From: Fimicolochytrium jonesii
Lineage: Eukaryota
NCBI RefSeq assembly: GCF_025526975.1
Contig: NW_026515671.1
Span: forward strand, 248,001-312,000
Direction of reading: 5' to 3'
Length of the DNA stretch: 64,000 nucleotides
The position numbers were made by a program, and so were the translations under genes. Under the pieces are notes generated by a model. It was given only the letters and a program-made list of their open reading frames with translations, was not told where the DNA came from and ran no database searches. Below are positions 34,093 through 64,000 of the stretch, one piece after another (the first letter of the stretch is position 1; every line of letters begins with the position of its first letter).

Positions 34093-36499
34093 TGTTATGG
34101 ACGACGGGCCCATACCATAAGCTTACCTACTGACAGCCGCCAATGTCAACCGCCAAATGTCAAACGCCAATGTCAATGTCAATGTCAGTGTCAATGTCAG
34201 TGTCAATGTCAATGTCAATGCCACTCCCCCTCTCTCCTCTCATTTTCGCCAATCCTCCCGCAATATCGCCACTCCTCCTCTCTCCTCTCATTTTGCCAAT
34301 CCCCCCTTGGCTTCTCCACACCCCCCACTACTTCCCCATAGCCAGCAGCTGTGGCAATGCTCTCTACGCTCGCCACGCACGCTCTAGGAGCATAGCTGGC
34401 GCCCCCCCAGTCCCCTCTTGTTGTTGTTGTTCTCTGATCTGCTGGGTTGCCAATCTATAAATAGCCGGCCTCTCTTCGTCCATTCCCTTCCTCCCCAGCA
34501 GATTAACACCAGTTCTTCTCATCTCCTGTTCTAGTCCTTGTTTCTTGTTTCGCCAATACAATCTCTTGTCGCCTATCACTCTCGCCCTGACTTCTCTACT
34601 TCGCTTCCGCCTCCCTTGTCGAGATCATAACAGTTTGATCTGCTCCAACACTGCGAAGTTCAGAACCCGTCCAGCCCTGCATCCGACAAACCTTTTTCGC
34701 CATGTCCCAACCCGAATCCGTACCTTTCACTGCCAAGCAATGGAACGATATGTGCCAAGCCATCGCCGCCTTGCAAAGCCAAAACGCCAACTTGCAGGCC
34801 AACCTAGCGCAAGCCCAAGCCGACGCACAAGCTGCCCAGAGCATCGCCGCCCAGGTTCAAGCCGATACGTACACCCGGTCCCAAGTCACCAACCCTGCTC
34901 TGGAGCCAAGAATCAGCTCACCCAAGAAGTTTCATGGTACCCGCAGCAAATTCCGTGGGTGGTTGAACAACATCCGGTTGATGTTTGCTCTCCAGCCCGA
35001 CCGCTACCCCAGCGACATCATCCAGATCCAAACTATTGGCACCTACCTCACAGGCACTGCGCAAGCCTGGATGGCGCCCCTAGTCGAACGCCAAGATCAC
35101 AGCCTTCATGACTTCGATAGTTTTATCAGTCAGATGCAATCGGTCTTCGGAGACAGCGACAGGGTCCGCACCTCTGAAAACAAGCTCCAGAACCTTCGCC
35201 AAACCCGTGCAGCAACCGAGTACGTCGCTGAGTTCCGCCAGCTACAATGCGATGTCTCCTGGAACGACCAGGCCCTGATTGCTACCTTCCGCCGTGGCCT
35301 CAAAGAAGACGTCAAAGACCTGATGCTCACAATGCCCCCTGCGGCCACCATTGATGTGGTGATGGAGCAGGCTATCCAGTGCGATAACCGGCTGTTTGAG
35401 CGCCGCCTGGAGCGAAACAGAAGCCGCCAGACCTTCCCGGTTCCCCATACCTCGTTTACTACTACCACCACTGTCGACCACAGCGAGCCTATGCAGATTG
35501 ACGCCGCTCGTCCCCGCGGCCCTCTGAGCCCTCAGGAACGCCAACGCCGCATTTCCAACAACCTCTGCCTTTACTGCGGTGGCGCGGGGCACATTGCAAA
35601 AGTCTGCCCCGTCAAGAACAAGACCACCACCCGTGCCGCCAACGTCGACATCAAAGAACCCTCCACCAAACAGGGTTTTCCCAAAGTCCAGCCGCAGTAA
35701 AGCCCCAGCGACTGGACAACACACACCGCCCCGGGCCTCCTAACCTCGCAGCTCCTGCAACGGGAGAGGCCACCCCCCTGGTTCCCGACTCCGTTATAGC
35801 CGACACAACCCTCCTAGCCGCTGCCCATGTCAAAAACTCCGAAATTAACCCCCGCGCCATGCTTGCGCTGGGTCCCGTCGAACCCTTCAACTACCCCGTT
35901 ACCATCATGGTATCATCCAGCCGCGCCCCGATACCTACCTCAGCCATGATCGACAATGGTGCCCTGTCCTGCTTCATTGACAGAGACTTTGCCCGAAAAC
36001 ACCGCATCGCCCTAGTCCCGCATCAGCGTCCACTGACGATCGAACTCGTTGACGGTCAACCCAGCTCTGCTGGGCCAATCACCCATCACACCCGACCAGT
36101 AGGCATGTGGGTTGACGACCACTTCGAAGAACTCGTCTTCCATGTCACCAAATCACCCCATGCTCCAATCCTCCTTGGTCTCCCCTGGCTCCGCCTCCAC
36201 GACATTAACCTTGACTTCAAGAACCTTTCGGTCGGTTTCCGTCGCGACTGTCTGTACCATGAATTCGCGAATTGGGACAACTCTCCAGCACCCCCGAGCC
36301 CAGCACCCGCCAGAACCCCCGAGCCCTTGATCCGCATCCCCCAGGATGAAGTCCCCGTCGACGAAACATGGTCGATTCCAGTACCCAAGGTATCTCGCTC
36401 CAGCACCCTAGAACCGGCTCCCACGCCGCTCCGAGTCTCGTTCATCTCCGCCCCAGCCTTCCAGGTCGCAGCAAGGCATGACCAGGTCTTTGTCGCCTA
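34093..36499 (+). mobile_element. Ty3/gypsy chromovirus copy 1: 5' LTR 34093-34632, gag, protease; truncated by copy 2
   Basis: LTR TGTTATG...CATAACA; near-identical to the reverse complement of about 40090-42447. Confidence 0.93.
34702..35700 (+). CDS. gag: Gag (PEG10/RTL1-like capsid plus CCHC knuckle) of chromovirus copy 1
   Basis: PKKFHGTRSKFRGWL, YLTGTAQAW, LRQ..EYVAEF, FRRGL, EPMQID, CLYCGGAGHIAKVC. Confidence 0.92.
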   Translation: MSQPESVPFTAKQWNDMCQAIAALQSQNANLQANLAQAQADAQAAQSIAAQVQADTYTRSQVTNPALEPRISSPKKFHGTRSKFRGWLNNIRLMFALQPDRYPSDIIQIQTIGTYLTGTAQAWMAPLVERQDHSLHDFDSFISQMQSVFGDSDRVRTSENKLQNLRQTRAATEYVAEFRQLQCDVSWNDQALIATFRRGLKEDVKDLMLTMPPAATIDVVMEQAIQCDNRLFERRLERNRSRQTFPVPHTSFTTTTTVDHSEPMQIDAARPRGPLSPQERQRRISNNLCLYCGGAGHIAKVCPVKNKTTTRAANVDIKEPSTKQGFPKVQPQ

Positions 36500-36991
36500 T
36501 GTTATGATCTCGACGACAGAGGCGGAAGCAAAGTAGAGAAGTCAGGGCGAGAGTGATAGGCGACAAGAGATTGTATTGGCGAAACAAGAAACAAGGACTA
36601 GAACAGGAGATGAGAAGAACTGATGTTGATCTGCTGGGGAGGAAGGGAATGGACGAAGAGAGGCCGGCTATTTATGGATAGGCAACCCAGCAGATCAGAG
36701 AACAACAACAACAAGAGGGGACTGGGGGGGCGCCAGCTATGCTCCTAGAGCGTGCGTGGCGAGCGTAGAGAGCATTGCTCCAGCTGCTGGCTATGGGGAA
36801 GTAGTGGGGGGTGTGGAGAAGCCGAGGGGGGATTGGCAAAATGAGAGGAGAGAGGGGGAGTGGCATTGACATTGACATTGACACTGACATTGACACTGAC
36901 ATTGACATTGACATTGGCGTTTGACATTTGGCGGTTGACATTGGCGGCTGTCAGTAGGTAAGCTTATGGTATGGGCGCGTCGTCCATAACA

Positions 36992-39900
36992 TCACCCCTC
37001 TCTTGAGCGGCGGCGGCGGCGGCGTCGAGTTTGGTGTGGCCGCACAGGAGGTGCTACGGGGACAGAGGAAGGCTTGTTGGGGTACGCGCTGTGGAAGTCC
37101 TGGAGGAGTGCGTCGGTATGGGTGAGGTGTTCCACGGGCTCCCAGGTGTTCTCAGAGTCAGGCCAGCCCTGCCATTTGACCAAGTACTGAAGGCGACGAC
37201 GATGGATGCGAGAGTCAAGGATGGCTTTGACAACCCACTCTTCTTGACCCTCAACGGTCTCTGGGGGCGCGGGTTCGGGTTCGTGTCGTTTGGGGATGGT
37301 GAAGCGGGGTTCGAGGAGCGAGACATGGAAGACATCGTGGATTTTGTACGTAGGCGGGAGCTTGAGCCGGTAGGCGACGGGATTGATTTTTTCAACGATG
37401 GGGAATGGCCCAATCTTGCGATGGTCGAGTTTCTGAGAGGGCTGGGTTGTCTGGAGGTCTTTGCGGAGGAGCCAGACGTGGTCGCCAGGCTTGAAGTGCG
37501 GTCCAGGAATTCGTTTGGCGTCGGCGTAGCGCTTCATTTGATCTTGGGCTTCCTTGAGCTCGAGGGCGAGCTGTTCATGGACTTCCCTGATTTGTTTAGC
37601 GCGGGCTTCAGCGGCAGGGTTGACGGATTCGGAGGTAGCAGAGGCCGCGAAACTGAAGCGGGGGTGGAGACCCTTGTTGGCGTAGAAGGGGGTGGTCTGG
37701 GAGGCGGACTGATGGGTGTTGTTGTAGGCGAACTCGGCGGACGACAGAAGCTGTTTCCAGTTGTCCTGTTGGTGGTTGCAAAAGCATCGGAGATACTGCT
37801 CCAGGATCTGGTTAGTGCGTTCCGTCTGGCCATCGCTCTGGGGGTGGAAGGCCGAGGAGAGGTTGGCTTTCGCCCCAAGGAGTTCGAGAAGTCGACGCCA
37901 GAACCGGGACTTAAACTGGGGTCCTCGGTCAGAGATGAAAACGTTGGGGAGGCCGTGGAGACGGATGATGTTGTGGAAGACTAGGTCGGCGGTGGATTTG
38001 GCGGATTCTGACTTGCTGCAGGCGAGAAAGTGGGCCATCTTGGTGAGGCAACAGTTGACGTTCAGGATGGAGTCGTACCCGTCCACGGGAGGCAGACCGG
38101 TGATAAAGTCCAGGGACCAAGATCCCCAAGGGCGGGTAGGGATACTGTTGGGCTGGAGTAGGCCGTATGGTTTGTGTCGACTGGATTTCGCTTGGCTACA
38201 GGTATCGCAGGACTTGACGTAGGCCTTGACGAAGCGCCACTGGCTGGGCCACCAGTAGTTGCGGGAGGCGAGTTCAAGCGTCTTGGACATCCCAAAGTGG
38301 CCGGCTAGGGGAGTATCGTGCATGTCGTGGCAGACTTCAGCTCGGAGCTCGTTGGTGGGGACAAAGACCAGGTTATTGTGCAGCAGGATCCCATCTTCAT
38401 CTGAGAACCGCTTGATACGATCTTGGGTTTCCTCAGTTCGTTGGGCGAGGGGTATCTTGAGCTTTTCGCGAATGGTCTTAGCGAGGGGAACATAGGCCTG
38501 GGCGGCCTTAATCTTGTCAAGCAGCGTGGTATCCATGGGTGTGAGGTAGGCAGCCGCGAGTTGAAGGCATTCGGGAGTCAAAATTGTGGTTGCCTGGGAG
38601 CGGAACGCTTCTTCCCCCTCGTTTAGCTCATGTTCGGAGCGTCGGGAGAGGGCATCGGCTTGGTGCTGCTGGGGACCGGGGCGATAGGTAATGACAAAGT
38701 CAAAATCCGAGAAGAATATCGACCAGCGGGCTTGGCGGCGGTTCAGGGTGCGGGTTGTCATGAAGTACTGAAGGTTTTTGTGGTCAGAGTAAACGGTGAT
38801 CTTGTGACGGGCGCCAATGAGATGGTGGCGCCACTGGGCAAAGGAGTCTTGGATGGCCAGAAGTTCCTTGTCGTAGATCTCGTAGTTGATCTCTTCGGCC
38901 GTGAATTTGCGAGAGTGGAAGGCCACGGGGTGGAGCTGATTGTCCTGGTCAGGTTGGAGGAGAACTGCGCCAAGAGCGAAGTCGGAGGCGTCAGTTTCGA
39001 CGACGAAGGGCTTCTCTGGGTCAGGGTGAGCAAGGATGGGGGCGGTGGTGAATGCTTTCTTCAGGTTCTCGAAGGCGGTGTTTGCGACGGGTGTCCAGGC
39101 GTACGGGATGTCTTTCCGGGTCAGGGCTGTGAGCGGAGTAGCGATCTTGGAATAACCTTGGATGAATCGGCGATAGAAGTTGGCAAAGCTGAGGAACCGC
39201 TGGACGCCTTTGACAGTCTTGGGAGGTTCCCAATCCGTGATGGCAGCGATCTTCTTGGGGTCCATCTGGATGCCTTTCTCGGAGATGATGAAGCCTAGGA
39301 ACTCAACGGATTCGCGGTTGAATTCGCACTTCTCTGGTTTGGCGTACAACCCATGCTGTCGGAGGCGGGACAAGACTTCGCGGACATGTTTGGGGTGATC
39401 TTCGGGGTTCTTGGAGAATATCAGGACATCGTCGAGGTAGACGACAACAAACACATCGAGAATGTCGCGGAAGATGTCGTTCATCAGGTACTGGAAGACG
39501 CCAGGAGCATTGCTGAGTCCAGAGGGCATGACATTGTATTTGAATAGGCCGTAGCGGCAGCGGAAGGCGGTCTTCCATTCATCGCCCGGGCGCATGCGTA
39601 AGAGGTTATAAGCGCCGCGGAGGTCAATCTTGGTGAGACGGCGGGCGCCACGCAAACAATCCATGATACCGTTGATCAGGGGCAGGGGGTAGCGATTCTT
39701 CACCGTGATGCTGTTCAGGCCTCGATAATCGACGCAGAGGCGGAGAGAACTGTCCTTTTTCTTCACGAATAAGACTGGCGCACCGGCAGGGGACTTTGAG
39801 GGTTTGATGAATCCTTTGGCGAGGTTTTCTTCGAGGTATTCGCAGAGTGCCTTCATTTCTGGTTCGCTGAGGCTGTAGATTGGGCCGAAAGGTGGCTGCT

Positions 39901-40915
39901 TGCCTTCTTCCAGATCGATTGGACAGTCGTAGGGCCGGTGCTCGGGGAGAGTGTCAGCATTTCTCTTTTCGAAAACGTCGGCGAAGTCTCGATACTCGGG
40001 GGGCAGGAAGTCTTTGATGTCTTTCTCGGGTGTCGGGGGGTTACTGGGGCTAGGCGAGGCCGGGAGATCGGGTTTCGCAGGGTTGGCGTAGGCGACGAAG
40101 ACCTGGTCATGCCTTGCTGCGACCTGGAAGGCTGGGGCGGAGATGAACGAGACTCGGAGCGGCGTGGGAGCCGGTTCTGGGGTGCTGGAGCGAGATACCT
40201 TGGGTACTGGAATCGACCATGTTTCGTCGACGGGGACTTCATCCTGGGGGATGCGGATCAAGGGCTCGGGGGTTCTGGCGGGTGCTGGGCTCGGGGGTGC
40301 TGGAGAGTTGTCCCAATTCGCGAATTCATGGTACAGACAGTCGCAACGGAAACCGGCCGAAAGGTTCTTGAAGTCAAGGTTAATGTCGTGGAGGCAGAGC
40401 CAGGGGAGACGAAGGAGGATTGGAGCATGGGGTGATTTGGTGACATGGAAGACGAGTTCTTCGAAGTGGTCGTGGACCCACATGCCTACTGGTCGGGTGT
40501 GATGGGTGATTGGCCCAGCAGAGCTGGGTTGACCGTCAACGAGTTCGATCGTCAGTGGACGCTGATGCGGGACTAGGGCGATGCGGTGTTTGCGGGCAAA
40601 GTCTCTGTCAATGAAGCAGGACAGGGCACCATTGTCGATCATGGCTGAGGTAGGTATCGGGGCGCGGCTGGATGATACCATGATGGTAACGGGGTAGTTG
40701 AAGGGTTCGACGGGACCCAGCGCAAGCATGGCGCAGGGGTGAATTTCGGAGTTTTCGACATGGGCAGCGGCTAGGAGGGTTGTGTCGGCTATAACGGAGT
40801 TGGGAACCAGGGGGGTGGCCTCTCCCATTGCAGGAGCTGCGAGGTTAGGAGGCCCGGGGCGGTGTGTGTTGTCCAGTCGCTGGGGCTTTACTGCGGCTGG
40901 ACTTTGGGAAAACCC
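36992..40915 (-). CDS. pol: Pol (protease, RT, RNase H, integrase, chromodomain) of copy 2, reached by a -1 frameshift from gag
   Basis: [83 protein letters not shown]. Confidence 0.93.
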   Translation of the reverse strand, partial: GFSQSPAAVKPQRLDNTHRPGPPNLAAPAMGEATPLVPNSVIADTTLLAAAHVENSEIHPCAMLALGPVEPFNYPVTIMVSSSRAPIPTSAMIDNGALSCFIDRDFARKHRIALVPHQRPLTIELVDGQPSSAGPITHHTRPVGMWVHDHFEELVFHVTKSPHAPILLRLPWLCLHDINLDFKNLSAGFRCDCLYHEFANWDNSPAPPSPAPARTPEPLIRIPQDEVPVDETWSIPVPKVSRSSTPEPAPTPLRVSFISAPAFQVAARHDQVFVAYANPAKPDLPASPSPSNPPTPEKDIKDFLPPEYRDFADVFEKRNADTLPEHRPYDCPIDLEEGKQPPFGPIYSLSEPEMKALCEYLEENLAKGFIKPSKSPAGAPVLFVKKKDSSLRLCVDYRGLNSITVKNRYPLPLINGIMDCLRGARRLTKIDLRGAYNLLRMRPGDEWKTAFRCRYGLFKYNVMPSGLSNAPGVFQYLMNDIFRDILDVFVVVYLDDVLIFSKNPEDHPKHVREVLSRLRQHGLYAKPEKCEFNRESVEFLGFIISEKGIQMDPKKIAAITDWEPPKTVKGVQRFLSFANFYRRFIQGYSKIATPLTALTRKDIPYAWTPVANTAFENLKKAFTTAPILAHPDPEKPFVVETDASDFALGAVLLQPDQDNQLHPVAFHSRKFTAEEINYEIYDKELLAIQDSFAQWRHHLIGARHKITVYSDHKNLQYFMTTRTLNRRQARWSIFFSDFDFVITYRPGPQQHQADALSRRSEHELNEGEEAFRSQATTILTPECLQLAAAYLTPMDTTLLDKIKAAQAYVPLAKTIREKLKIPLAQRTEETQDRIKRFSDEDGILLHNNLVFVPTNELRAEVCHDMHDTPLAGHFGMSKTLELASRNYWWPSQWRFVKAYVKSCDTCSQAKSSRHKPYGLLQPNSIPTRPWGSWSLDFITGLPPVDGYDSILNVNCCLTKMAHFLACSKSESAKSTADLVFHNIIRLHGLPNVFISDRGPQFKSRFWRRLLELLGAKANLSSAFHPQSDGQTERTNQILEQYLRCFCNHQQDNWKQLLSSAEFAYNNTHQSASQTTPFYANKGLHPRFSFAASATSESVNPAAEARAKQIREVHEQLALELKEAQDQMKRYADAKRIPGPHFKPGDHVWLLRKDLQTTQPSQKLDHRKIGPFPIVEKINPVAYRLKLPPTYKIHDVFHVSLLEPRFTIPKRHEPEPAPPETVEGQEEWVVKAILDSRIHRRRLQYLVKWQGWPDSENTWEPVEHLTHTDALLQDFHSAYPNKPSSVPVAPPVRPHQTRRRRRRRSREG

Positions 40916-41886
40916 TGTTTGGTGGAGGGTTCTTTGATGTCGACGTTGGCGGCACGGGTGGTGGTCTTGTTCTTGACGGGGCAGACTTTTGCAATGTGCC
41001 CCGCGCCACCGCAGTAAAGGCAGAGGTTGTTGGAAATGCGGCGTTGGCGTTCCTGAGGGCTCAGAGGGCCGCGGGGACGAGCGGCGTCAATCTGCATAGG
41101 CTCGCTGTGGTCGACAGTGGTGGTAGTAGTAAACGAGGTATGGGGAACCGGGAAGGTCTGGCGGCTTCTGTTTCGCTCCAGGCGGCGCTCAAACAGCCGG
41201 TTATCGCACTGGATAGCCTGCTCCATCACCACATCAATGGTGGCCGCAGGGGGCATCGTGAGCATCAGGTCTTTGACGTCTTCTTTGAGGCTACGGCGGA
41301 AGGTAGGCATCAGGGCCTGGTCGTTCCAGGAGACATCGCATTGTAGCTGGCGGAACTCAGCAACATACTCGGTTGCTGCACGGGTTTGGCGAAGGTTCTG
41401 GAGCTTGTTTTCAGAGGTGCGGACCGTGTCGCTCTCTCCAAAGACCGATTGCATCTGACTGATAAAACTATCGAAGTCCTGAAGGCTGTGATCTTGGCGT
41501 TCGACTAGGGGCGCCATCCAGGCTTGCACAGTGCCTGTGAGGTAGGTGCCAATAGTTTGGATCTTGATGATGTCGCTGGGGTAGCGGTCGGGCTGGAGAG
41601 CAAACATCAACCGGATGTTGTTCAACCACCCACGGAATTTGCTGCGGGTACCATCAAACTTCTTGGGCGAGCTGATTCTTGGCTCCAGAGCAGGGTTGGT
41701 GACTTGGGGACGGGTGTACGTATCGGCTTGAACCTGGGCGGCGATGCTCTGGGCAGCTTGTGCGTCGGCTTGGGCTTGCGCTAGGTTGGCCTGCAAGTTG
41801 GCGTTTTGGCTTTGCAAGGCGGCGATGGCTTGGCACATATCGTTCCATTGCTTGGGAGTGAAAGGTACGGATTCGGGTTGTGACAT
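40888..41886 (-). CDS. gag: Gag of chromovirus copy 2
   Basis: 332 aa, nearly identical to 34702-35700. Confidence 0.92.
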   Translation of the reverse strand: MSQPESVPFTPKQWNDMCQAIAALQSQNANLQANLAQAQADAQAAQSIAAQVQADTYTRPQVTNPALEPRISSPKKFDGTRSKFRGWLNNIRLMFALQPDRYPSDIIKIQTIGTYLTGTVQAWMAPLVERQDHSLQDFDSFISQMQSVFGESDTVRTSENKLQNLRQTRAATEYVAEFRQLQCDVSWNDQALMPTFRRSLKEDVKDLMLTMPPAATIDVVMEQAIQCDNRLFERRLERNRSRQTFPVPHTSFTTTTTVDHSEPMQIDAARPRGPLSPQERQRRISNNLCLYCGGAGHIAKVCPVKNKTTTRAANVDIKEPSTKQGFPKVQPQ

Positions 41887-42447
41887 GGCGAAAAAGGTTT
41901 GTCGGATGCAGGGCTGGACGGGTTCTGAACTTTGCAGTGTTGGAGCAGATCAAACTGTTATGATCTCGACAAGGGAGGCGGGAGCGAAGTAGAGAAGTCA
42001 GGGCGAGAGTGATAGGCGACAAGAGATTGTATTGGCGAAACAAGAAACAAGGACTAGAACAGGAGATGAGAAGAACTGGTGTTGATCTGCTGGGGAGGAA
42101 GGGAATGGACGAAGAGAGGCCAGCTATTTATAGATAGGCAACCCAGCAGATCAGAGAACAACAACAACAAGAGGGGACTGGGGGGGCGCCAGCTATGCTC
42201 CTAGAGCGTGCGTGGCGAGCGTAGAGAGCATTGCTACAGCTGCTGGCTATGGGGAAGTAGTGGGGGATGTGAAGAAGCCGAGGGGGGATTGGCGAAATGA
42301 GAGGAGAGAGGGGGAGTGGCATTGACATTGACATTGACACTGACATTGACACTGACATTGACATTGACATTGGCGTTTGACATTTGGCGCTTGACATTGG
42401 CGCCTGTCAGTAGGTAAGCTTATGGTATGGGCGCGTCGTCCATAACA

Positions 42448-45117: not shown

Positions 45118-47006
45118 TGTTGTGTTATTACTGGGAAGTAGCCGATGAAGAGTAGAACCATTACTGGTCTTAATGTATTACTTGTTGTATGTCTATATAC
45201 TCCGGACTCTGGCGTCGGGGTCTTTGTTTCTCTGACCGTGACCAGACTGCTTACGCGATGACAGCAACTGACAGGATAGTTCGCGTCTCTGCACAACACT
45301 CCCCCGACTCGAGCTGTCCAAAAGTCAGCCTGTCCAACTCCCGCTCTCAACTCCATTCCAATCAACAACACACTCTCTCTTTCCGACACCCAAATCCAAC
45401 CAATCCATCAAGATGCCGAACGGTGGTCCAACTTGCCCGATCTGTATGGTCAACCCTGCCATCTACAACGGGCCATGTGGGCACCTCTTTTGCCGTACGT
45501 GCATCGTCCAGGAGATCCTCTCTCATTTGCACGCCCCACGCTGTGGCGTTTGTTGGTGAGTGGTGAGAGGAGGTAATTCAACTGATAAACGTGTATTGAT
45601 TGCCTCTCTTAGAGCCCCGTGGCCAGTTTACTTAACCCGGGACCGGCACAATCGTCAGTGCTGCATGTGCGGCACTAATCCCATCTCGTGTCGCATGGTG
45701 ACCTCGTGTGGCAACTGCACCATATGCAACGGATGCTCCATTTATCTTGTTCGGTGTCACCCGCCGAATCAAGTTCGGTGTCCGTCGTGTCATGTAGCTT
45801 TTGACGCTCCGCTGCTCACTTGGCTCCGAAGAGCCATTATTCAACAATACGGCGTGTAGTGTAGACTTCACTGTCGTAGCCCACATAGTTCCCGTAAATA
45901 AACAAACACCGGTCTCAGAAGCGCTTTCGTTTGGATGTCCGCTATCATTTCTTTTGTTGAGATATACTGGAAATCTAGCTTGCGTTCAGCTACAAGTTCC
46001 CGAATAAAGTGGTGTCGAACGTCAACGTGCTTCGTCCGCTGATGATCCACGGGATTGTTCGCAAGTTTGATGGCGGCTTGGTTATCTTTGTAAATCAGTA
46101 TGGGCTTGTCGGATGCGCCCAGGATTTCCTGTTTCATCCGAGAAAGCCACAGCGCTTCTTTGGCTGCTTCTCCGAGCGCTACATATTCCGCTTCCGCCGT
46201 AGATACTGTAACAGCCGCTTGCCGTTGTGACTTCCAGGATATTGCTCCCCCGTTTAAGGTGAACATGTACCCTGAAACCGAACGCCCAGTCTCTTTGCAT
46301 TTTGCGAACTCCGCATCACTGTATCCCCGGAGTTTGTTATCTGACTCGTTATTGTATTGTAGGATAAGCTCTTCCGTTTTGGCAACGTAACTGAAAACCC
46401 GCTTAGCCGCCTTCATATGTGTCTGTGACGGCTTAGCCAGAAACTGGGATAACTTAGATATCGCGAAAGCGATATCAGGGCGAGTTCCAATCATAAGGTA
46501 CATCAATGACCCTATCATCGATTGATACGTTGCAACGTCTGCCGGTTTCTCATCCGCAGCTATAATCTCAAGCTTCACATTGGGATCCAGCGGCGTGTCG
46601 TGCGGTTGCATCTGCTCCAACCCGAACTTCCGTAGTATATCACTGATGTAATTCTGTTGTCCAATAGTGAGGGTTCGTTGGATGCGATTTTGTCTGACTT
46701 CTATTCCGAGGAGGTAAGAGAGCTCCCCCATGTCTTCCATTTCGAAGCGTAATTTCAACCCTTCTTTAATTGCTTCCCGTTCCACTTTGCTCGTTGAAAG
46801 AATTGTCAAATCATCAACGTAGACGGCGATGATGATAAAACCTCAGCCAATGCGCTTTATGTAAAGAGCATTGTCTAGTTTGGAAACGTTGAAGCCTTTC
46901 TCTCGTAGGTAAGCGTCCAACACCTTATTCCACAACCGAGGTGACTGTTTCAGTCCGTACAGAGAACGTTTGAGTTTAACCGTTGTCCCCTCTGGTAGGC
47001 GAAGGT
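45118..47006 (-). mobile_element. Ty1/copia remnant A: 3' LTR 45118-45298, PPT, cargo region, RT/RNase H 45868-47006
   Basis: LTR TGTTGTG..CACAACA followed by CTCCCCC (PPT on minus); SLYGLKQSPR, YVDD, GTRPDI, YSDA, STAEAEY, RTKHVDVRHHF. Confidence 0.9.
45413..45859 (+). pseudogene. Two-exon tandem RING-finger gene (exons 45413-45555, 45613-45859) antisense within copia A; splice-junction codon now reads TGA
   Basis: Exon 1 CPIC..PCGHLFCRTC..RCGVC is C3HC4; exon 2 CCMC..SCGNCTICNGC..RCPSC is RING-like; 57-nt GTGAGT..CTGAT..TTAG intron. Confidence 0.78.
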
Positions 47007-50003: not shown

Positions 50004-51890
50004 GCGTCTTACGACCCGGAGCAAGATTTATAGTGTTCACGGATGCATCGGTTTTTGCAATAGGCGGATGGCTTGCCCAGCCGGCGAATCCATCAGAGCA
50101 TTACCCATCACCGTTGCCTACCTCAGTAAACGGATTTAAGAATCTGCCACCGTTAAAGCCGATAGCTTTCTTTGGGCGGAAGATGCAACCCGCTGAAACA
50201 CGTTACCCCTTGCACAAACAAGAGCTATTAGCTCTGGTTAGCATATGCAAGGCAAACAGGCATTACTTGCAGGATCGGACAAATGACCGCCCGTTTCGCG
50301 CGTTCACCGATCACGCTAGTTTGGTCTGGCTGCAGACACAGCCCTTCCTGAGCCATTGCCAAGCATGATGGGTTGAATTCCTGCAACAATCCAAATTTGA
50401 TATTGAATATCAACCTGGTCGTTGGAACACCGTCGCGGATGTGTTGAGTCGTAATCCTTATTACGCTCCTTGCTGCGCCGAGTGTAACAAGCAAGTGGAA
50501 ATCGCTGCGGCCTTGGGGATGTCCGTCGAGTATATTCCTTTGGGGAATGTTACGCTTGAGGATTGGATACGAACCTTGGAGGCTGATGAGTACTTCGCTT
50601 TGCGGAAAGAGGCGTTGTCACAGCCAAAGGAACGACAGTCAACATTCGATCGCCGTTTTTCGATCGATGACTATGGTTGTTTACTGTACCACGATAAGTT
50701 CTATGTGCCAGCTGCTTTACGAGGAACTGTATTGCAGGCGTACCACAACTCGTTGCTATCTGGCTCGCATACGGGGGTACAAGGTACATTGGGCAAACTC
50801 CTACGTGAGTTTTACTGGCCCGATATGGACGCAGATGTGAGAGGGTACATCAAGACTTGTGGGTCTTGCCAAAGGTTCAAGTCGCTGAACAGTAAGTGCG
50901 TTGGCTTACTTCGTTCGCTCCCAGTTCCCGACCGACGTTGGCACACAATGGGTATGGACCCTGTCTGGATGCCAATAACACGGTCATTGGGGGGGAAGGT
51001 GCAGAGTGATGCGTTTTACGACAGTTTTATTGTCTTCATCGACTATCTGTCAGGGTGCGCATACTTTATACCTGCGGCATCCACGATAACTGCCGAGGAG
51101 TTGGCCCATCTTTACTTCCGTGAAATATGGCGCCATACAGGTACTGCAGCTCTGATCGTCGGAGATCGAGATCCCCGCTACCTGGCAGATTTCTGGAAGG
51201 TGTTTCAATCGTTGTTGGGCTCAAAGCAGAGCTTGAGCACGGCACGACCCCAACAGATGGACGGAAAGGTCGAACGGTGTATCTCTATCTTGAAGAAGAT
51301 GATTAAACCGTACCTTAATGTAACGGGAGACGATTGGGTTGACAAACTACCGATGTTGGAGTTTGCCTACAACCGTACGCAGAACAGCACTGGATACTGC
51401 CCTTTCGAGGTTGATTTGGGTAGAATTCCGCAGGCGCCGATGCATTGGCAAGTTGACACAAAGGTGTTGCAACGTATGGACGATATCTCGATCCCATTCT
51501 TGCATAAGTCACAATGTGAGCTCATCAAACAGATGGAGAAGCGTGCTGAGGCATACCGATCCATTGAACTCATAGTGCAGCAGAAACTGCAGGAAGCCCA
51601 GGACAAACAAGCGAAGTATCACGATCGTGGACGTCGTGTACAGAGCTTTCGTCCAGGAGATAAAGTCCTGTTGAACAGCGATGGGATAACGATCCCTGCT
51701 TTCAATAAGAAGCCGCTCAAGTTTAGACAGAGCTGGCTAGGACCCTTCATTGTGAAGAGGGAAGGACCACACCCGGAAACATACGAGTTAGAGCTGCCAG
51801 CTTTGATGGGCGCTTTATACCCGGTCTTCCATACGGATATCTTTAAGCCTTGGCACAAGCCGACTTCAGATCCGCACGCTGCAGGGGGGG
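50004..51890 (+). mobile_element. Degenerate Ty3/gypsy RNase H plus integrase, same family as 42770-45066
   Basis: VFTDAS..IGGWLAQ, AETRYPLHKQELLA, HTGVQGT..FYWP..CGSCQ, DRDPRY, DGKVER, WLGPF, PVFH. Confidence 0.88.
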
Positions 51891-53545
51891 ATTCTGAGCT
51901 CCCTGACGCATCTCCCAACCCACAATCTGACACTGATCAATGGGCAGAGGCCCCAGAGGACCTAGACGACCAGGAAGACCAGGAAGATGACGACTTGGTG
52001 CACTACGGACGCATCACATGCTCCCAGAGCACTCGAATACGCCAAAGCAACCTTGCCTATGCCCTGGCCACCGAAGTACTGCACACAGAGCCCAAAACCC
52101 TCAAGCAAGCTCTAAACTCCAACGACTCAGCCAAGTGGAAGGAAGCCATGGAGGCTGAATACGTATCCCTTGTCAAGAACGGCACCTGGGAGCTCTGTCC
52201 GGCACCCAAAGATAGCAACCTTGTTGGATGCAAGTGGATTCACAAGATCAAGACGAATGCTGAAGGCAGTATCGAACGCTACCAGGCCAGACTATCCGCC
52301 CAAGGCTTCTCACAAGAATAGGGAGTTGACTAGAACGAAACATTCGCACCAGTGGCCAAGTTCGACACCATTCGGCTACTCTTGTTGTGGGGAGCAGCAC
52401 AGGACCTCGAAATGGACCAAATGGACGTGTCCACCGCATTCCTGAACCCGACACTCAGTGAGGAGATCTATATGAAGCAGCCACCGGGCTACATCAAGCC
52501 AGGAGAAGAGCATCTTGTGCTTAAACTCAAGAAGACACTCTATGGTCTCAAACAAGCCCCCAGGGAGTGGTACATCGAAATCCATGGCACTCTCGTTGAG
52601 AAAGGCTTCACTCGTCTTGATTCAGACCATTGCGTCTATATCAGGTTCTTTGAGGGCTGGCTACTCATCCTGATCCTCTATATGGACGATCTCATACTTA
52701 TGAGGCACAAGAGACTCGATCTTGACAGCTTCAAGGCCAAGGAACTTCAAAAGGCGTACGAAATGCGTGATCTAGGTGCCCTGCACTACTTCCTGGGTCT
52801 TTTAGTCCCTCGAGACCGAGCCAAACGACTCCTGACGCTCAACCAGACTGGGTACATCGAAAAATGTCTTGAAACATACGGGATGACCGATTGCAAGCCT
52901 GTATCAACTCCCAGCGTCGTGGGAAGCCCTCTCACCAAGGAAATGACACCTCAAACGCCTGAAGAGACTGCAGAGATGCAGAACAAGCCCTATCGAGCGA
53001 TTGTAGGCAGTCTGATCTCTGCAATGTTCGGCACAAGACCAGACATAGCCCAAGCAGTTGGAGCTGTGAGCTAGTTCTTAGCCAATCCAGGCAAAGGACA
53101 TTGGAAAGCTGCCAAACGCATTCTGGCGTATCTCAGGACGACCAAACACTTCCAACTTCGACTGGGAGCCGTCCAAGAAACCCCCAAACTCGTGGGATGG
53201 TCAGACTCAGACTGAGGAGGCTGCCCAGACACTCGAAGATCGACCACAGGATACCTCTTCACCTTCTGCGGTCCAGTAAGCTGGAAATCACGCACACAAC
53301 GCACTACAGCACTCCCCTCCACCGAAGGCGAATACATGGCACTCACAGACGCCTGTAAAGAAGCCATGTGGCTCAGATCTCTACTCAGAGAACTGAGCAC
53401 GCACCAAGACCAGACAGGACTCGTTCAAGGCCCCACAGTCATCTGGGAAGACAACCAAGGAGCTATGACACTCGCCACAAACCCAGTTCACCATGCACGA
53501 ACCAAGCACATCGACATCTGAAACCACGTCATTCGTGAACAATTG
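51890..53545 (+). mobile_element. Degenerate Ty1/copia RT plus RNase H (different family from copia A and B)
   Basis: EPKTLKQAL, KNGTWEL, QMDVSTAFL, LYGLKQAPR, YMDD, TRPDIA, STEGEY, HARTKHIDI; in-frame stops. Confidence 0.9.
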
Positions 53546-55628: not shown

Positions 55629-56199
55629 TTGTCTTGACGGCTTGAGGACGCGATTGAAAGCAGATGCAGCCGACGATGACTTCCTCGATGTCGTACATCA
55701 AATGAAGCAGAACCGATTCGATCTGGCTCCTATGATCACCACCGACACGAAACTTACCACGCAGGCAGGAATTGCCAAAGTTATCAAGCACGCTTCACTC
55801 TCCAGAAGAGACATTGCTCAAGGAATGTTGGAGATCCTTTGTAACGCTGTCATAAAGTCTGGCACCGATGTAGTCAAAAGATGCACGATTTATCGCACAC
55901 CAGTGCTATTGGAGACCAGGGCTATTTGGAAGTCAAATAGCACCAACTTTGCGATGCACCTATGCGCTGGAATATCACACCAGTGCTATTACAGGACCAG
56001 CAGTACGTCGTTGTATGTACATCTGTTTCGAAAGCACAGGACTGGGCAATTCAATTCAAGAACATTACCAAAGCCAATCGCTTGAGGGCAGCCTGGATTT
56101 GGGCACATCTCCCGTCGTCACCCGGCCTTGCTAAGTTACGTCCCAGATCTTGAGTTCAGCATTGCACTCAGCACCCCATCCTCCGACACCCTGTCTGAC

Positions 56200-57129
56200 A
56201 TGGGTGATGATCACTACCCTATCCTCACTCCAATGGAGGCAGACGAGGCCCTCTCACAGTTCCCCGCAGGCCAGGAAGAGCCAGAGTCTGAAGTCTACAA
56301 CAGAGGCCGCCGCAATTCCTTTGACCGGCGTCAGGAAGAGTGGGACTACACTCAGAGAATGTCGAAGGAGGGTGAGGACCAGGACAATAAGCCCAGTGCC
56401 GTGCCTTGCAAACCAGGCCCTGACGATACCATTGCCATCACTTTGCCTTTGAAGAGGAAGCTGATTCCTGAGAATCTTGCGCCAAGATTTTGACCGTTGT
56501 CCGAGGAGGAGATACAGAGGATTAATGAGGCAGACAAAAACCTGAACACCGTTCGCTCTACAAAGACATGGGTCAAAAAGTGGAACCAGTACAAGGAAGA
56601 GTGCCACTTGACTAAGAAGATGGCACTGTCAACGTTGCTCAATTGAACAAGGTGAGAACCCACAACTGCTTCCGCACAGTCCATTTGTTTGACCTCAAAG
56701 CTGATATCTACTTCACGCAAACCATCTAGGACTTGGAGGCCTTCATCATTCAGGTCAAAATGGACAACGGGGAAGGGTTTTGTGACTCCAGCTTGGATAC
56801 TGGCTTTGGTAGTCTTGGCCGCTATTTCAAACTCAAAGGGGAGGAAAACAACCGGGTTGTCAATATTCAGTCTGACACTGAGTTCCGTGGTGCACGTACT
56901 ATTCTCAACGTGAGGATGGCCGACCTACATAAGATGGGCAATGGTGGGACCACGCAGCCTCTGACCTCAGCCTTGAAGAATTTCGCACTATGCTGGGTTC
57001 AGCCTTCTGCTCAGTGGACACGCCGGAAGGCCTTCTCCACTGCGTTTACCTCTACCTGTCAGTCTTCCTTGTTGAGCGTGGAGGAGAGGCAAGCCGCATG
57101 GAGGTTACAGATCTGAAGCTGAAGATGAT
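56200..57129 (+). mobile_element. Crypton-like (DUF3504/ZMYM-QRICH1-type tyrosine recombinase) remnant with an intron, truncated by a copia LTR
   Basis: NTVRSTKTWVKKW; FIIQVKMDNGE..SSL..LGRY; F..ARTIL..RMADL..GNG; LSLEE..DTPEGLL..VY..ERGGE..DL; intron about 56652-56729. Confidence 0.7.
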
Positions 57130-60100
57130 TCTTGTGGTTATAGGAAGTAGCCGATGAAGAGTAGAACCATTACTGTATTACTATTAGTTATATCTATTAC
57201 ATTCTTAGGTGTCGGGCACTTCACTCCTAGCCGTCTGCGCAGACTGCTGAAGCGAAGGCTTACTAATGACGGCGTTTGACAGGATTAGGGATAGGGTTAG
57301 GGATAGCTCACGTCTCTGCACAACACTCCCCCGACGCGAAATGCCCAAACAACCCTAAAATCCGGCTGTCCACATCGCCGACGACTGCATACCCCTCTTC
57401 TTCTTCCATATCCGACCCCATCCAACCGGTCCAGATTCATTTCCCCTCTCATTGGGCAACTTCGACCACATCCGCTCTTGTTTACGGCTCTCTTTGTCTC
57501 AATCCGCATAGTGCCCGGAGGTGAACAAAGGCTGGTTTCGGGAGGGCTTTCGTCTGGATGTCGGCGACCATTTCTTTTGTTGATATATACTGAATATCTA
57601 CTTTGTTTTCAGCCACGAGTTCCCGAATGAAATGGTGTCAAAGGTCGATGTGTTTTGTCCTCTGATGATCTACCGGATTATTGGCGAGTTTTATGGCGGC
57701 TTGGTTGTCCTCATAGATCAGGACGGGCTGGGGCTCGTCAGGGACCCCCAGGATTTCCCTTTTCAACCGAGAGAGTCAGATCGCTTCCTTAGCCGCCTCT
57801 CCAAGCGCCACATATTCTGCTTCCGCTGTGGATACCGTCATGTTTTTCTGCCGTTGGGATTTCCAGGATAAAGCTCCCCCATTCAAGGTGAACGTATAGC
57901 CCGAAACCGACCGTCTCGTCTCTTCACACTTCGCGAAATCCGCATCACTGTATGCCCGCAGCTCGTTATCTGATTCGCCATATTGCAGGACAAGCGTTTT
58001 GGTCTTGGCAATATAACTGAAAACCCGCTTGACGGCTTTCATATGAGTTTGCGAGGGTTTGGCTAAGTACTGAGAGTGTTTGGATACGGCGAATGCGATG
58101 TCTGGTCGGGTTCCAACCAGTAAGTACATCAATGACCCGATCATTGACTGGTACGTTTTGACGTCTGCCGGCTTCTCCTCCTCCGCAGTCATAACTTCTA
58201 GTTTCACATTTGGGTCCAGCGGAGTGTCGTGCGGTTGCATCTGTTCCAGCCCGAATTTTCGCAGGATGTCGCTTATATACTTCTGCTGTCCAATAGTGAG
58301 GGTCCGCTGGGTGCGATTTCGTCTCACTTCTATTCCTAGGAGGTGGGAGAGCTCCCCCATGTCCTCCATTTCGAAGCGCAATTTCAGCTCTTCTTTAATA
58401 GCGTCCCGTTCGGATTTACTGGTTGAAAGGATGGTCAAATCATCGACGTAGACGGCAATGATAATGAAACCTCGTCCAATGCGCTTTATATAAAGAGCAT
58501 AGTCCAGTTTTGACACATTGAAGCCCTTCTCCCGGAGGTAAGCGTCCAAGACCTTATTCCATAACCGGGGCGACTGTTTAAGGCCGTATAGGGAACGTTT
58601 GAGTTGAACAACGGTACCGTCGGGCAGGCGAAGGTATATTACGGTGTCGAGGTTCCCATTCAGGAAGGCGGTTTTCACGTCCATCTGATGGATTTCTAGG
58701 TCGTGTGCCGCTGCAATGGCCAACAACATCCGCAACGTGTTGAATTTTACGACGGGCGCAAACGTTTCATGATAATCTATCCCCTCTCTCTGCGTGAAAC
58801 CCCTTGCGACTAGACGAGCTTTGAACTTCTTTATGGTGTTGTCAGGGTTGCGCTTTACTTTGAATACCCACTTAGAATCTACTGTGTGTCCAGAGTGGTT
58901 TTGACCGGGATTTTGGGCGCTCTGGTCATCGGGTTTTGGACCAGAATTCTGGGCGTCCCCAGAAATTCGGTGGTCAACCCATCGACCGGGTGCTTCCCAG
59001 GTTCCATTCTTTGCATGGGATGCAAGTTCCTCTTCCATAGCGGCTTGCCATTTGCGTGCGTATGGAGATTTCATAGCGGCTTTCAGTGTGGAGGGTTCGT
59101 CTGTGTCTACCGTCGCTGCTAAGAGCTCTGCGCCGGGTCCTGATCCGGGTTCAGCTCCAAGGTACTGACTCCCGTCGTCTTCGACCCCCAGAAATTCCGA
59201 CAACGCTACTGCGTCCTTCACAAATTCATAGGGTTCCCAAGTGGGGTCGTCAAACCCTACCCACTTAACAAGGTATTCCTTCTCCCCCAAATCTCCATCC
59301 CCACGCCACAAAAGCATCTTTTCAACGGCGTATTCAGCATCTGAGTTTGATTCAGGGATGGATTCGCTACGACTGTTGTTTTCTTTGAAAGTGACGTCCC
59401 GGGATTCAAAGATCTCCAACGTTTCTTCATCAATGAGTCGGTATGTGCCATGTTTGGTGGCATGGTAGCCAAGAAGCCGCAACGGGCCTAGCGCCCATGC
59501 CGAAAGCTTACTTCTCCTCTTTTGTTTAGGGATGTGAAGGAAGGCTTCACTCCACGGTGTCCGCAAATTCGAGATATCTGCGGGTCGTCCGTACCATCTA
59601 TGGTATGGGGTCGTTCCGGTTGCACTGGCCGGCGTCCGCTGTCTAAGATAATTGACCAATACAGCCAATTCATTCCATAGATTTTCTGGGACATTACTAA
59701 TCCACATTATGGCCCGAATTTGGTCCATAATAGTCCGGTTGAAGCGCTCCGCAATCCCGTTTTGTTGGGAAGAGTATGGCTGCGTCGGAACCAGCGAGAT
59801 CCCTGCTTCCTTTAATTCATCCAGCATCTCGGTCGACATGTATTCCCCCCCGTTGTCGCAGCGCAACTCTTTGATCTTCCCATTACAATGGCGCTCTGCA
59901 AACGCTTTAAACTCTTTCCACTTCTGGTGCACCTCGCTCTTATTTTTCAAGATGTAGATTACTGACCATCTCGAAAACTCGTCAATAAACGTGAGGATGT
60001 ACCGCTTTCCATTAAAAGATTTCGTTTTAGGACCGACGTCCAATACATCTGAGTGGATCCTGTCCAATAATTTGGTTGCAGGCCGGGGGTTTTGCCCAGT

Positions 60101-60507
60101 GAAGGGCTTCCGTGTTTGTTTTCCTTTTTTACAGCCCACACAGAGTGGGGGTTCGGCGTTTTTGGTGTTGAGTTCGAAGTTGTATTCTAAACTCGCAGCT
60201 TGAAGCGCTTTGGATCTGATGTGTCCAAAACGCTGGTGCCATAGTTTATTGACGTTGCGGTCTTGGGCTTTCCCTCAAGTGCCAGAATAAACGCTTCCGG
60301 CTCTGCTTCAATATACCCTTTCAGGAACGGAAGTCGTCCATTATGGGTCACTCGCAACACGGATGTCCCATCTCGTCTGATTTCCGCATGTCCTTTTCGG
60401 AGTTGGATGTCGTAGCCCTCATCAACCAAAGGTGCCGTACTGCATAGATTTTGGCGCGCATTGGGCACATAGAGCACGTTTCAAAGGGTAATGTGTTTTT
60501 CCGGCTC
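57130..60507 (-). mobile_element. Ty1/copia remnant B, related to copia A: 3' LTR 57130-57325; pol with pre-integrase, integrase, chromodomain, RT and RNase H; 5' end cut by chromovirus copy 3
   Basis: WHQRFGH, CKKGK, HSD, IDEFSR, RCDNGGEY, QNGIAERFN, ARLVARGFTQ, QMDVKTAFL, YVDD, YSDAD; LTR shares GGAAGTAGCCGATGAAGAGTAGAACCATTACTG with the 45118 LTR. Confidence 0.92.
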
Positions 60508-63500
60508 TGTTATGATCTCGACGACGGAGGCGGAAGCGAAGTAGAGAAGCCAGGGTGAGAGTGATAGGCGACAAGAGATTGTATTGGCGAAACAAGAAAC
60601 AAGGACTAGAACAGGAGATGAGAAGAACTGGTGTTGATCTGCTGGGGAGGAAGGGAATGGACGAAGAGAGGCCGGCTATTTATAGATAGGCAACCCAGCA
60701 GATCAGAGAACAACAACCACAAGAGGGGACTGGGGGGGCGCCAGCTATGCTCCTAGAGCGTGCGTGGCGAGCGTAGAGAGCATTGCTCCAGCTGCTGGCT
60801 ATGGGGAAGTAGTGGGGGGTGTGGAGAAGCCGAGGGGGGATTGGCGAAATGAGAGGAGAGAGGGGGAGTGGCATTGACATTGACATTGACACTGACATTG
60901 ACACTGACATTGACATTGACATTGGCGTTTGACATTTGGCGGTTGACATTGGCGGCTGTCAGTAGGTAAGCTTATGGTATGGGCGCGTCGTCCATAACAT
61001 CACCCCTCTCTTGAGCGGCGGCGGCGGCGGCGTCGAGTTTGATGTGGCCGCACAGGAGGTGCTACGGGGACAGAGGAAGGCTTGTTGGGGTACGCGCTGT
61101 GGTAGTCCTGGAGGAGTGCGTCGGTATGGGTGAGGTGTTCCACGGGCTCCCAGGTGTTCTCAGAGTCAGGCCAGCCCTGCCATTTGACCAAGTACTGAAG
61201 GCGACGACGATGGATGCGAGAGTCAAGGATGGCTTTGACAACCCACTCTTCTTGACCCTCAACGGTCTCTGGGGGCGCGGGTTCGGGTTCGTGTCGTTCG
61301 GGGATGGTGAAGCGGGGTTCGAGGAGCGAGACATGGAAGACATCGTGGATTTTGTACGTAGGCGGGAGCTTGAGCCGGTAGGCGACGGGATTGATTTTTT
61401 CAACGATGGGGAATGGCCCAATCTTGCGATGGTCGAGTTTCTGAGAGGGCTGGGTTGTCTGGAGGTCTTTGCGGAGGAGCCAGACGTGGTCGCCAGGCTT
61501 GAAGTGCGGTCCAGGAATTCGTTTGGCGTCGGCGTAGCGCTTCATTTGATCTTGGGCTTCCTTGAGCTCGAGGGCGAGCTGTTCATGGACTTCCCTGATT
61601 TGTTTAGCGCGGGCTTCAGCGGCAGGGTTGACGGATTCGGAGGTAGCAGAGGCCGCGAAACTGAAGCGGGGGTGGAGACCCTTGTTGGCGTAGAAGGGGG
61701 TGGTCTGGGAGGCGGACTGATGGGTGTTGTTGTAGGCGAACTCGGCGGACGACAGAAGCTGTTTCCAGTTGTCCTGTTGGTGGTTGCAAAAGCATCGGAG
61801 ATACTGCTCCAGGATCTGGTTAGTGCGTTCCGTCTGGCCATCGCTCTGGGGGTGGAAGGCCGAGGAGAGGTTGGCTTTCGCCCCAAGGAGTTCGAGAAGT
61901 CGACGCCAGAACCGGGACTTAAACTGGGGTCCTCGGTCAGAGATGAAAACGTTGGGGAGGCCGTGGAGACGGATGATGTTGTGGAAGACTAGGTCGGCGG
62001 TGGATTTGGCGGATTCTGACTTGCTGCAGGCGAGAAAGTGGGCCATCTTGGTGAGGCAACAGTTGACGTTCAGGATGGAGTCGTACCCGTCCACGGGAGG
62101 CAGACCGGTGATAAAGTCCAGGGACCAAGATCCCCAAGGGCGGGTAGGGATACTGTTGGGCTGGAGTAGGCCGTATGGTTTGTGTCGACTGGATTTCGCT
62201 TGGCTACAGGTATCGCAGGACTTGACGTAGGCCTTGACGAAGCGCCACTGGCTGGGCCACCAGTAGTTGCGGGAGGCGAGTTCAAGCGTCTTGGACATCC
62301 CAAAGTGGCCGGCTAGGGGAGTATCGTGCATGTCGTGGCAGACTTCGGCTCGGAGCTCGTTGGTGGGGACATAGACCAGGTTATCGTGCAGCAGGATCCC
62401 ATCTTCATCTGAGAACCGCTTGATACGATCTCGGGTTTCCTCAGTTCGTTGGGCGAGGGGTATCTTGAGCTTTTCGCGAATGGTCTTAGCGAGGGGATCA
62501 GAGGCCTGGGCGGCCTTAATCTTGTCAAGCAGCGTGGTATCCATGGGTGTGAGGTAGGCAGCCGCGAGTCGAAGGCGTTCGGGAGTCAAAATTGTGGTTG
62601 CCTGGGAGCGGAACGCTTCTTCCCCCTCTTTTAGCTCATGTTCGGAGCGTCGGGAGAGGGCATCGGCTTGGTGCTGCTGGGAACCGGGGCGATAGGTAAT
62701 GACAAAGTCAAAATCCGAGAAGAATATCGACCAGCGGGCTTGGCGGCGGTTCAGGGTGCGGGTGGTCATGAAGTACAGAAGGTTTTTGTGGTCGGAGTAA
62801 ACGGTGATCTTGTGACGGGCGCCAATGAGATGGTGGCGCCACTGGGCAAAGGAGTCTTGGATGGCCAGAAGTTCCTTATCGTAGATCTCGTAGTTGATCT
62901 CTTCGGCCGTGAATTTGCGAGAGTGGAAGGCCACGGGGTGGAGCTGATTGTCCTGGTCAGGTTGGAGGAGAACTGCGCCAAGAGCGAAGTCGGAGGCGTC
63001 AGTTTCGACGACGAAGGGCTTCTCTGGGTCAGGGTGAGCAAGGATGGGGGCGTTGGTGAATGCTTTCTTCAGGTTCTCGAAGGCGGTGTTTGCGGCGGGT
63101 GTCCAGGCGTACGGGATGTCTTTCCGGGTCAGGGCTGTGAGCGGGGTAGCGATCTTGGAATAACCTTGGATGAATCGGCGATAGAAGTTGGCAAAGCCGA
63201 GGAAGCGCTGGACGCCTTTGACATTCTTGGGAGGTTCCCAATCCGTGATGGCAGCGATCTTCTTGGGGTCCATCTGGATGCCTCTCTTGGAGATGATGAA
63301 GCCTAGGACCTCAACGGATTCGCGGTTGAATTCGCACTTCTCTGGTTTGGTGTACAACCCATGCTGTCGGAGGCGGGACAAGACTTCGCGGACATGTTTG
63401 GGGTGATCTTCGGGGTTCTTGGAGAATATCAGGATATCGTCGAGGTAGACGACAACAAACACATCGAGAATGTCGCGGAAGATGTCGTTCATCAGGTACT

Positions 63501-64000
63501 GGAAGACGCCAGGAGCATTGCTGAGTCCACGGGGCATGACATTGTATTTGAATAGGCCGTAGCGGCAGCGGAAGGCGGTCTTCCATTCATCGCCCGGGCG
63601 CATGCGTAAGAGGTTATAAGCGCCGCGGAGGTCGATCTTGGTGAGACGACGGCGCCACGCAAACAATCCATGATACCGTTGATCAGGGGCAGGGGGTAGC
63701 GATTCTTCACCGTGATGCTGTTCAGGCCTCGATAATCGACGCAGAGGCGGAGAGAACTGTCCTTTTTCTTCACGAATAAGACTGGCGCACCGGCAGGGGA
63801 CTTTGAGGGTTTGATGAATCCTTTGGCGAGGTTTTCTTCGAGGTATTCGCAGAGTGCCTTCATTTCTGGTTCGCTGAGGCTGTAGATTGGGCCGAAAGGT
63901 GGCTGCTTGCCTTCTTCCAGATCGATTGGACAGTCGTAGGGCCGGTGCTCGGGGAGAGTGTCAGCATTTCTCTTTTCGAAAACGTCGGCGAAGTCTCGAT
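60508..64000 (-). mobile_element. Ty3/gypsy chromovirus copy 3: 3' LTR 60508-60999 and pol with a 1-bp frameshift near 63650; runs off the window
   Basis: Near-identical to 36500-39990; pol is split into ORFs 61000-63666 and 63492-63863. Confidence 0.95.

Follow-up and report, generated by a model that had tools for sequence, protein, structure and literature searches.

A caged chromodomain behind the integrase of a decayed Ty1/copia element, and a Ty3-type Gag in its relatives

Nested elements and a decayed copia copy

The stretch of DNA analysed here (64 kb, hereafter the window) begins with a gene-dense, intron-containing host region (1-32000; SPT6 is recognized by Pfam at 25.9-27.7 kb), which ends abruptly at a 30-kb accumulation of LTR fragments. 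This transition could be a heterochromatin border, and the focal copia copy sits in the accumulation beside it. Three young copies of one Ty3/gypsy chromovirus occupy 34087-42447 and 60508-64000, with LTRs that are 96-97% identical; one copy lies within an inverted copy of itself and one within the focal copia element. At 33361-34086 (plus strand), an LTR-like unit of 320 bp, whose ends are inverted over 45 bp, is followed by TGGTAGCA, which we take to resemble a tRNA-Met primer site, and then by a gag-like frame that is cut by a gypsy insertion and weakly matches the Gag profile of the chromodomain-bearing copia elements (8.3 bits). A second, related copia copy (45118-47004, minus strand; 75-84% DNA identity to the focal copy in RT and RNase H) is cut within RT, has no chromodomain region and adjoins an opposite-strand gypsy RNase H-integrase fragment. 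At 50369-53540 (plus strand), the end of a gypsy RNase H and an H2C2 integrase are joined, in a single frame of 650 aa, to the start of a copia RT near 52.0 kb; this RT groups with ordinary copia (P0072), and the join is probably the result of local deletion or recombination. Degraded open frames without Pfam match lie between TE fragments at 56086-57116 (plus strand).

All features of the focal copy lie on the minus strand, in the order protease, integrase, RT, RNase H that is proper to Ty1/copia. The C-terminal part of the copia protease region (60275-60507) was recognized in three-frame translation by comparison by eye with P0012 and P0013. The zinc-binding (HHCC) region of the integrase (60116-60247) scores 22.7 bits on PF13976, under the cut-off, with the motifs WHQRFGH and CVGC read directly; it is followed by the catalytic core (59768-60052; PF00665, rve, 42 bits, aa 75-169) and by a C-terminal SH3-like domain of copia type (59372-59593; PF25597, SH3_retrovirus, 49.2 bits, aa 228-301). 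RT and RNase H extend over 57482-59098 (from Pfam and translation), with 214.8 bits on PF07727 (RVT_2) vs 17.5 on RVT_1. A polypurine tract (57326-57332), identical to that ahead of the LTR of the second copia copy, precedes a 3' LTR of 193 bp bounded by TG...CA (57133-57325), which shares 62% identity with the second copy's LTR near 45118-45299. A chromovirus identity for the element was rejected because its integrase does not follow RNase H and its RT is not of the RVT_1 type; a chromovirus-like trait is present in the chromodomain at the integrase C-terminus, where a cleavage site is presumed.

The open frame of the focal pol runs from stop to stop over 57776-60274 and encodes 832 aa; it is only part of pol, and the continuous ORF of 787 aa given in the original prediction has to be corrected. 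Stops are found at 57776-57778 and 57638-57640 in the RT/RNase H region, the latter in RNase H, and at 60481-60483 in the protease region, and there is a frameshift near 60270. Moreover, a gypsy chromovirus has inserted in the protease region at 60507/60508 and displaced the 5' part, so that gag, the primer binding site and the 5' LTR of the focal copy fall outside the window. The 3' LTR of this insertion, foreign to copia (60508-60999, minus strand), is 97% identical to LTRs near 36.5-37.0 and 41.95-42.45 kb, and its pol (61003-63960) contains RVT_1, an H2C2 integrase and a Chromo match of 58.2 bits. The focal copy is thus a dead, decayed fragment, with three stops, a frameshift and a gypsy insertion in its protease. 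No RIP-like dinucleotide bias was found in it.

The chromodomain and its conservation

The chromodomain occupies 59192-59335 of the minus strand (ORF aa 314-361). Its peptide reads in translation as first quoted, from EYAVEK beginning at 59335 to ALSEF finishing at 59192, and it is placed in frame between integrase and RT as had been predicted, after SRDVTF (59404-59387) and ahead of EPSTLK (59098). Pfam Chromo (PF00385), the search proposed for checking the prediction, gives the isolated domain 24.9 bits (E 1.9e-5) and finds it in the whole ORF with 19.4 bits (aa 317-355), both under the cut-off of 25.1; its close relatives pass (P0001 35.9, L001 46.2, P0012 49.5 bits). In a sequence search of the PDB, the best 60 of 64 rows were all chromodomain proteins, with cpSRP43, a chromodomain protein whose structure was determined together with a non-histone partner, in first place and HP1/CBX proteins alongside. 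The predicted aromatic cage is borne out by Y315 (59332-59330), W338 (59263-59261) and F341 (59254-59252), which align with the HP1 positions. A motif of the chromodomain, composed after the sequences had been viewed, occurs in 0 of 100,000 shuffles of the focal ORF. An AlphaFold2 model from an 11-row alignment predicts three strands and a C-terminal helix with pLDDT 77-87 over the domain, and it aligns with Chp1 by VIA-align over 52 residues (Z 6.9, rmsd 1.9). In Foldseek, the leading rows for the model are all chromodomains, readers of H3K9me/H3K27me first (prob 1.00), with a best E of 4.6e-3, so that no row attains E 0.001. The domain is a true type I chromodomain with a full cage in a copia element, and the model predicts an HP1-type fold for it.

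The domain is a trait of a family. In a homolog search with aa 200-520 as the query, the best 13 of the 120 listed matches (991 in total) carry Chromo, SH3_retrovirus and RVT_2, with 37-61% identity to the query and the chromodomain at the same place; one further listed homolog has PF00385 with SH3_retrovirus and RVT_2, and a 15th starts within the domain. A further 30 chromodomain copia proteins came from a profile search over 1.84 billion representatives, and chromodomain and copia domains occur together in 45 of 266 collected proteins. The same arrangement, gag included, was seen in 2 of 67 metagenome loci. The five named relatives all come from the chytrid Powellomyces hirtus, and 'chytrid' as a description of the lineage, and of the likely host of the focal copy, is an extrapolation from these five. 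The possibility of an isolated chimera, of a recent capture from the neighbouring gypsy element or of a misassembly finds some encouragement in the window itself, which is made of nested and recombined LTR fragments and includes the in-frame gypsy-integrase/copia-RT join near 52.0 kb. Yet this order and position recur in dozens of independent sequences from NCBI, ENA, JGI and Logan, and the focal domain is 70% identical to that of P0001 and 37% (17/46) to that of the neighbouring gypsy, without a DNA match. This confirms the strong difference from the neighbouring domain noted at the outset; the family data refute a chimera, a misassembly or a local capture, which we regard as almost certainly excluded.

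An aromatic residue stands at all three cage sites in 43 of 44 aligned domains, a count that leaves out the degenerate remnants P0179 and P0197 and four truncated members, and that is biased because a profile of caged domains was used to choose the rows. Among 11 sequences, pairwise identity averages 0.48 for the domain, 0.57 for SH3 and 0.49 for the start of RT, vs 0.21 and 0.17 for the flanking linkers; conservation like that of SH3 and RT and far above that of the linkers indicates selection, and the chromodomain is apparently heritable and under selection in the lineage, judging from these alignments. The linker from SH3 to RT has a median of 88.5 aa in 26 chromodomain elements vs 100 aa in 95 others, and an Arg-rich motif, defined post hoc after the sequences had been viewed, is found in the linker of 1 of the 26 vs 66 of the 95. 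The chromodomain takes the place of the variable integrase tail rather than extending it.

Phylogeny, Gag and the origin of the domain

An RT phylogeny had also been proposed as a check on copia membership. In the RT-RNase H tree (75 rows, a subset of 148, with multi-element proteins dropped; LG+G4; no gypsy outgroup), the focal copy falls among copia RTs as sister to P0001, within a 100/100 clade of 12 rows, all of them chromodomain-bearing. The backbone of this tree is weakly supported, and the chromodomain character needs 4-7 changes. In the IN+RT+RH tree (46 rows), holding together 18 elements, picked by chromodomain and Gag family, was 14.3 lnL better than the free search (p-AU 0.71), so that a single origin would be allowed.

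The lineage is more unusual than the original prediction had seen, through the Ty3-type Gag of the relatives. PF03732 is found in 14 of 14 lineage members with a full capsid region (13 above the cut-off), 7 of which also pass Ty3_capsid, and PF14223 in 0 of 14; ordinary copia controls have PF14223 in 4 of 4 (63-114 bits), and two of them are also weak on PF03732. The copia-type Gag (PF14223), which is usual for Ty1/copia, though not formally defining, is therefore absent from these relatives. The lineage Gags align as one family, and the partial Gag of the sister P0001, left out of profile building, scores 37.8 bits on their profile; the best outside matches of this profile are gypsy Gags with 32 bits, ordinary copia reaching at most 9.8. 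A capsid-only copia profile gives the lineage Gags at most 13.7 bits. Our assignment relies on Pfam and on this capsid-only profile, and not on the profile-profile comparison, which gave 98.6% against gypsy Gags and 82.8% against copia Gags but is biased because the gypsy set was selected by the query profile. The protease of the lineage is of copia type (PF22936). From the sister P0001, we infer that the focal copy's own Gag was Ty3-type. A homolog search with the Gag region of P0013 returned no match except itself, hence no Gag donor was found. The Ty3-type Gag suggests an exchange of modules between the Ty1/copia and Ty3/gypsy superfamilies; alternatively, the capsid may be a retained ancestral type. 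In the open-access literature, we found no description of a Ty3-type Gag in copia.

With regard to the domain itself, the one published precedent in copia that we found is that of diatoms, and no description of a fungal case was found in the open-access literature. Llorens 2009 (PMC2774666) describes a putative chromodomain for CoDi-A, other copia having none, and Ustyantsev 2017 (PMC5348765) names integrase chromodomains for chromoviruses, CoDi-I and Chronos only, with CoDi-I of diatoms as the sole copia exception. In plants, chromodomains were not found in copia (PMC6317226), nor anywhere outside chromoviruses (Neumann 2019). For fungi, Muszewska 2011 ties the chromodomain to gypsy and the centromeric copia of Ganoderma is described without one; the words chromodomain and chytrid do not occur in Donnart 2017, on ascomycete copia.

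It might be argued that the lineage and diatom CoDi-A inherited the domain from a common ancestor, as an old copia trait with many later losses, and that it was not gained independently. An AU test joining the lineage with the diatom-linked L009 family did not reject this (lnL 37 lower, p=0.075), L009 serving as a proxy through one cluster that holds an Attheya diatom protein, in place of named CoDi sequences. There are further chromodomain copia groups (P0228/P0239/P0256, P0270, L046), and a tree that joins the first group to the lineage is not rejected either (p 0.43), on a weakly supported backbone. Against shared descent, the L009 family lies at a distance of 2.1 substitutions per site, with polyproteins that reach 2,000-2,400 aa and have no SH3_retrovirus matches, and Pfam Chromo is found in just 2 of its 120 listed proteins; moreover, the focal clade is surrounded by chromodomain-less copia, so that many losses would be required. 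We consider shared descent improbable, and a gain independent of CoDi-A likely from these comparisons. Of the convergent gain originally claimed, a copia lineage with the domain family-wide holds, whereas independence from CoDi-A was not settled by the AU test on the proxy.

Several of these other groups deserve mention in their own right. Members of the L009 family (L009:1-4092, P0279-P0398) are very long copia polyproteins (to ~2,400 aa) with a chromo-like motif directly before RT; L009 has an additional canonical chromodomain further upstream, and some family members have a Tudor domain (PF21743). Beyond the lineage, chromodomain copia groups are P0228/P0239/P0256, in which the Gag differs and is without PF03732 and which may represent a separate gain, and P0251/P0270. 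In L046:2-3439, which is a highly divergent copia, a canonical chromodomain (Chromo 35.2 bits) lies between integrase and RT.

A tree of the chromodomain itself (49 columns, 46 rows) has no well-supported branch and does not distinguish a gypsy from a host donor. The donor may have been an ancient gypsy element, since the lineage also has a Ty3-type Gag.

Proposed function and comparison with known systems

We think it probable that an inherited HP1-type chromodomain behind the integrase SH3 domain tethers copia integration to chromatin methylated at H3K9 or H3K27. The protease would cut the polyprotein so that the chromodomain stays at the integrase end, cleavage after the domain being suggested by its position. 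The integrase-borne domain would then likely bind methylated H3K9 or H3K27, and the integration complex would be tethered to TE-rich silent chromatin, which would steer insertion. For the focal domain, methyl-lysine binding is presumed from its cage and its resemblances. A count of IN/RT cleavage-site motifs (17 of 26 chromodomain elements vs 48 of 97 others) does not discriminate. Tethering seems the most likely function because the tail is where targeting resides in Ty1 and Ty5, because a caged retrotransposon chromodomain is known to bind methylated H3K9 and because TEs of a chytrid are marked: Ty1 and Ty5 have their targeting determinants at the C-terminal end of integrase (PMC5911963), H3K9me2/3 is bound by the chromodomain of MAGGY (PMC3350952), and TEs of the chytrid Spizellomyces punctatus have high H3K9me3 and H3K27me3 (bioRxiv 10.1101/2025.03.17.643675). 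The nested-LTR surroundings of the focal copy fit a heterochromatic setting, but nesting is no proof of targeting because relaxed selection also yields it.

A real and selected chromodomain might instead serve integrase activity or stability, or bind another methyl-lysine or a non-histone partner, without targeting heterochromatin. The Tf1 chromodomain modulates integrase activity, the integrase without it being more active and less specific, and loss of the MAGGY chromodomain reduces transposition. Domain and target also lack a fixed link elsewhere: Skipper-2 targets tRNA genes despite its chromodomain, and among the brown-algal elements, of which ECR-like ones are an example of this missing link, intact chromodomains also occur in non-centromeric elements. 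The first place of cpSRP43 among the sequence matches would accord with a non-histone partner. On the other hand, the three-residue cage persists in elements whose domains share 33-70% identity, and the structural neighbours of the model are mostly readers of H3K9me/H3K27me. We regard a role other than targeting as rather unlikely, though with an appreciable chance of being right, and continue to favour tethering to methylated chromatin.

More tentatively, with slightly less than even confidence, we propose that this is an undescribed, old copia lineage and an inter-superfamily mosaic, composed of a copia PR-IN-RT-RH core, a Ty3/gypsy-type capsid and a caged chromodomain replacing the integrase tail. 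Such a copia 'chromovirus' of early-diverging fungi would have arisen independently of CoDi-A and would home to H3K9me3/H3K27me3 chromatin. The Gags belong to a single family, and the 18 tested members are united in the best IN+RT+RH tree that was found. A chromodomain serves as a nearly diagnostic feature of gypsy chromoviruses, and a copia lineage of fungi with the full cage would mean one more origin for this targeting module. Such a lineage would also be a natural experiment on whether a reader of histone marks suffices to redirect a copia integrase, in chytrids, for which the chromatin marks of TEs have now been mapped. Moreover, a Ty3-type Gag in a copia lineage would mislead domain-based classifiers.

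Among known systems, CoDi-A and CoDi-I of Phaeodactylum tricornutum share with the focal lineage the copia domain order and a chromodomain at the integrase C-terminus. CoDi-A belongs to Branch 1, is a diatom element, and its domain is called putative; the focal lineage, in contrast, stands among ordinary copia RTs, and has named chytrid members, a full three-residue cage and a Ty3-type Gag in relatives. The chromoviruses with a type I chromodomain (MAGGY, Tcn1, Skipper-1 and the gypsy element at 61003-63960) are alike in having a caged chromodomain after an SH3-like domain, and in the Gag type of the relatives. They differ in that the focal integrase precedes RT, the RT is RVT_2, the SH3 is PF25597 and not PF24626, and the protease is of the PF22936 type; furthermore, the focal chromodomain is internal in the polyprotein and needs release by cleavage. 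The Chronos elements of oomycetes (PMC5348765) are likewise LTR elements that acquired an integrase chromodomain separately, but they belong to Ty3/gypsy and have an additional RNase H. In Ty5 and Ty1 of budding yeast (PMC5911963), the copia integrase tail also bears the targeting determinant, which leads Ty5 to silent chromatin; there, however, short segments bind Sir4 or Rpc40, in place of a folded reader of histone marks.
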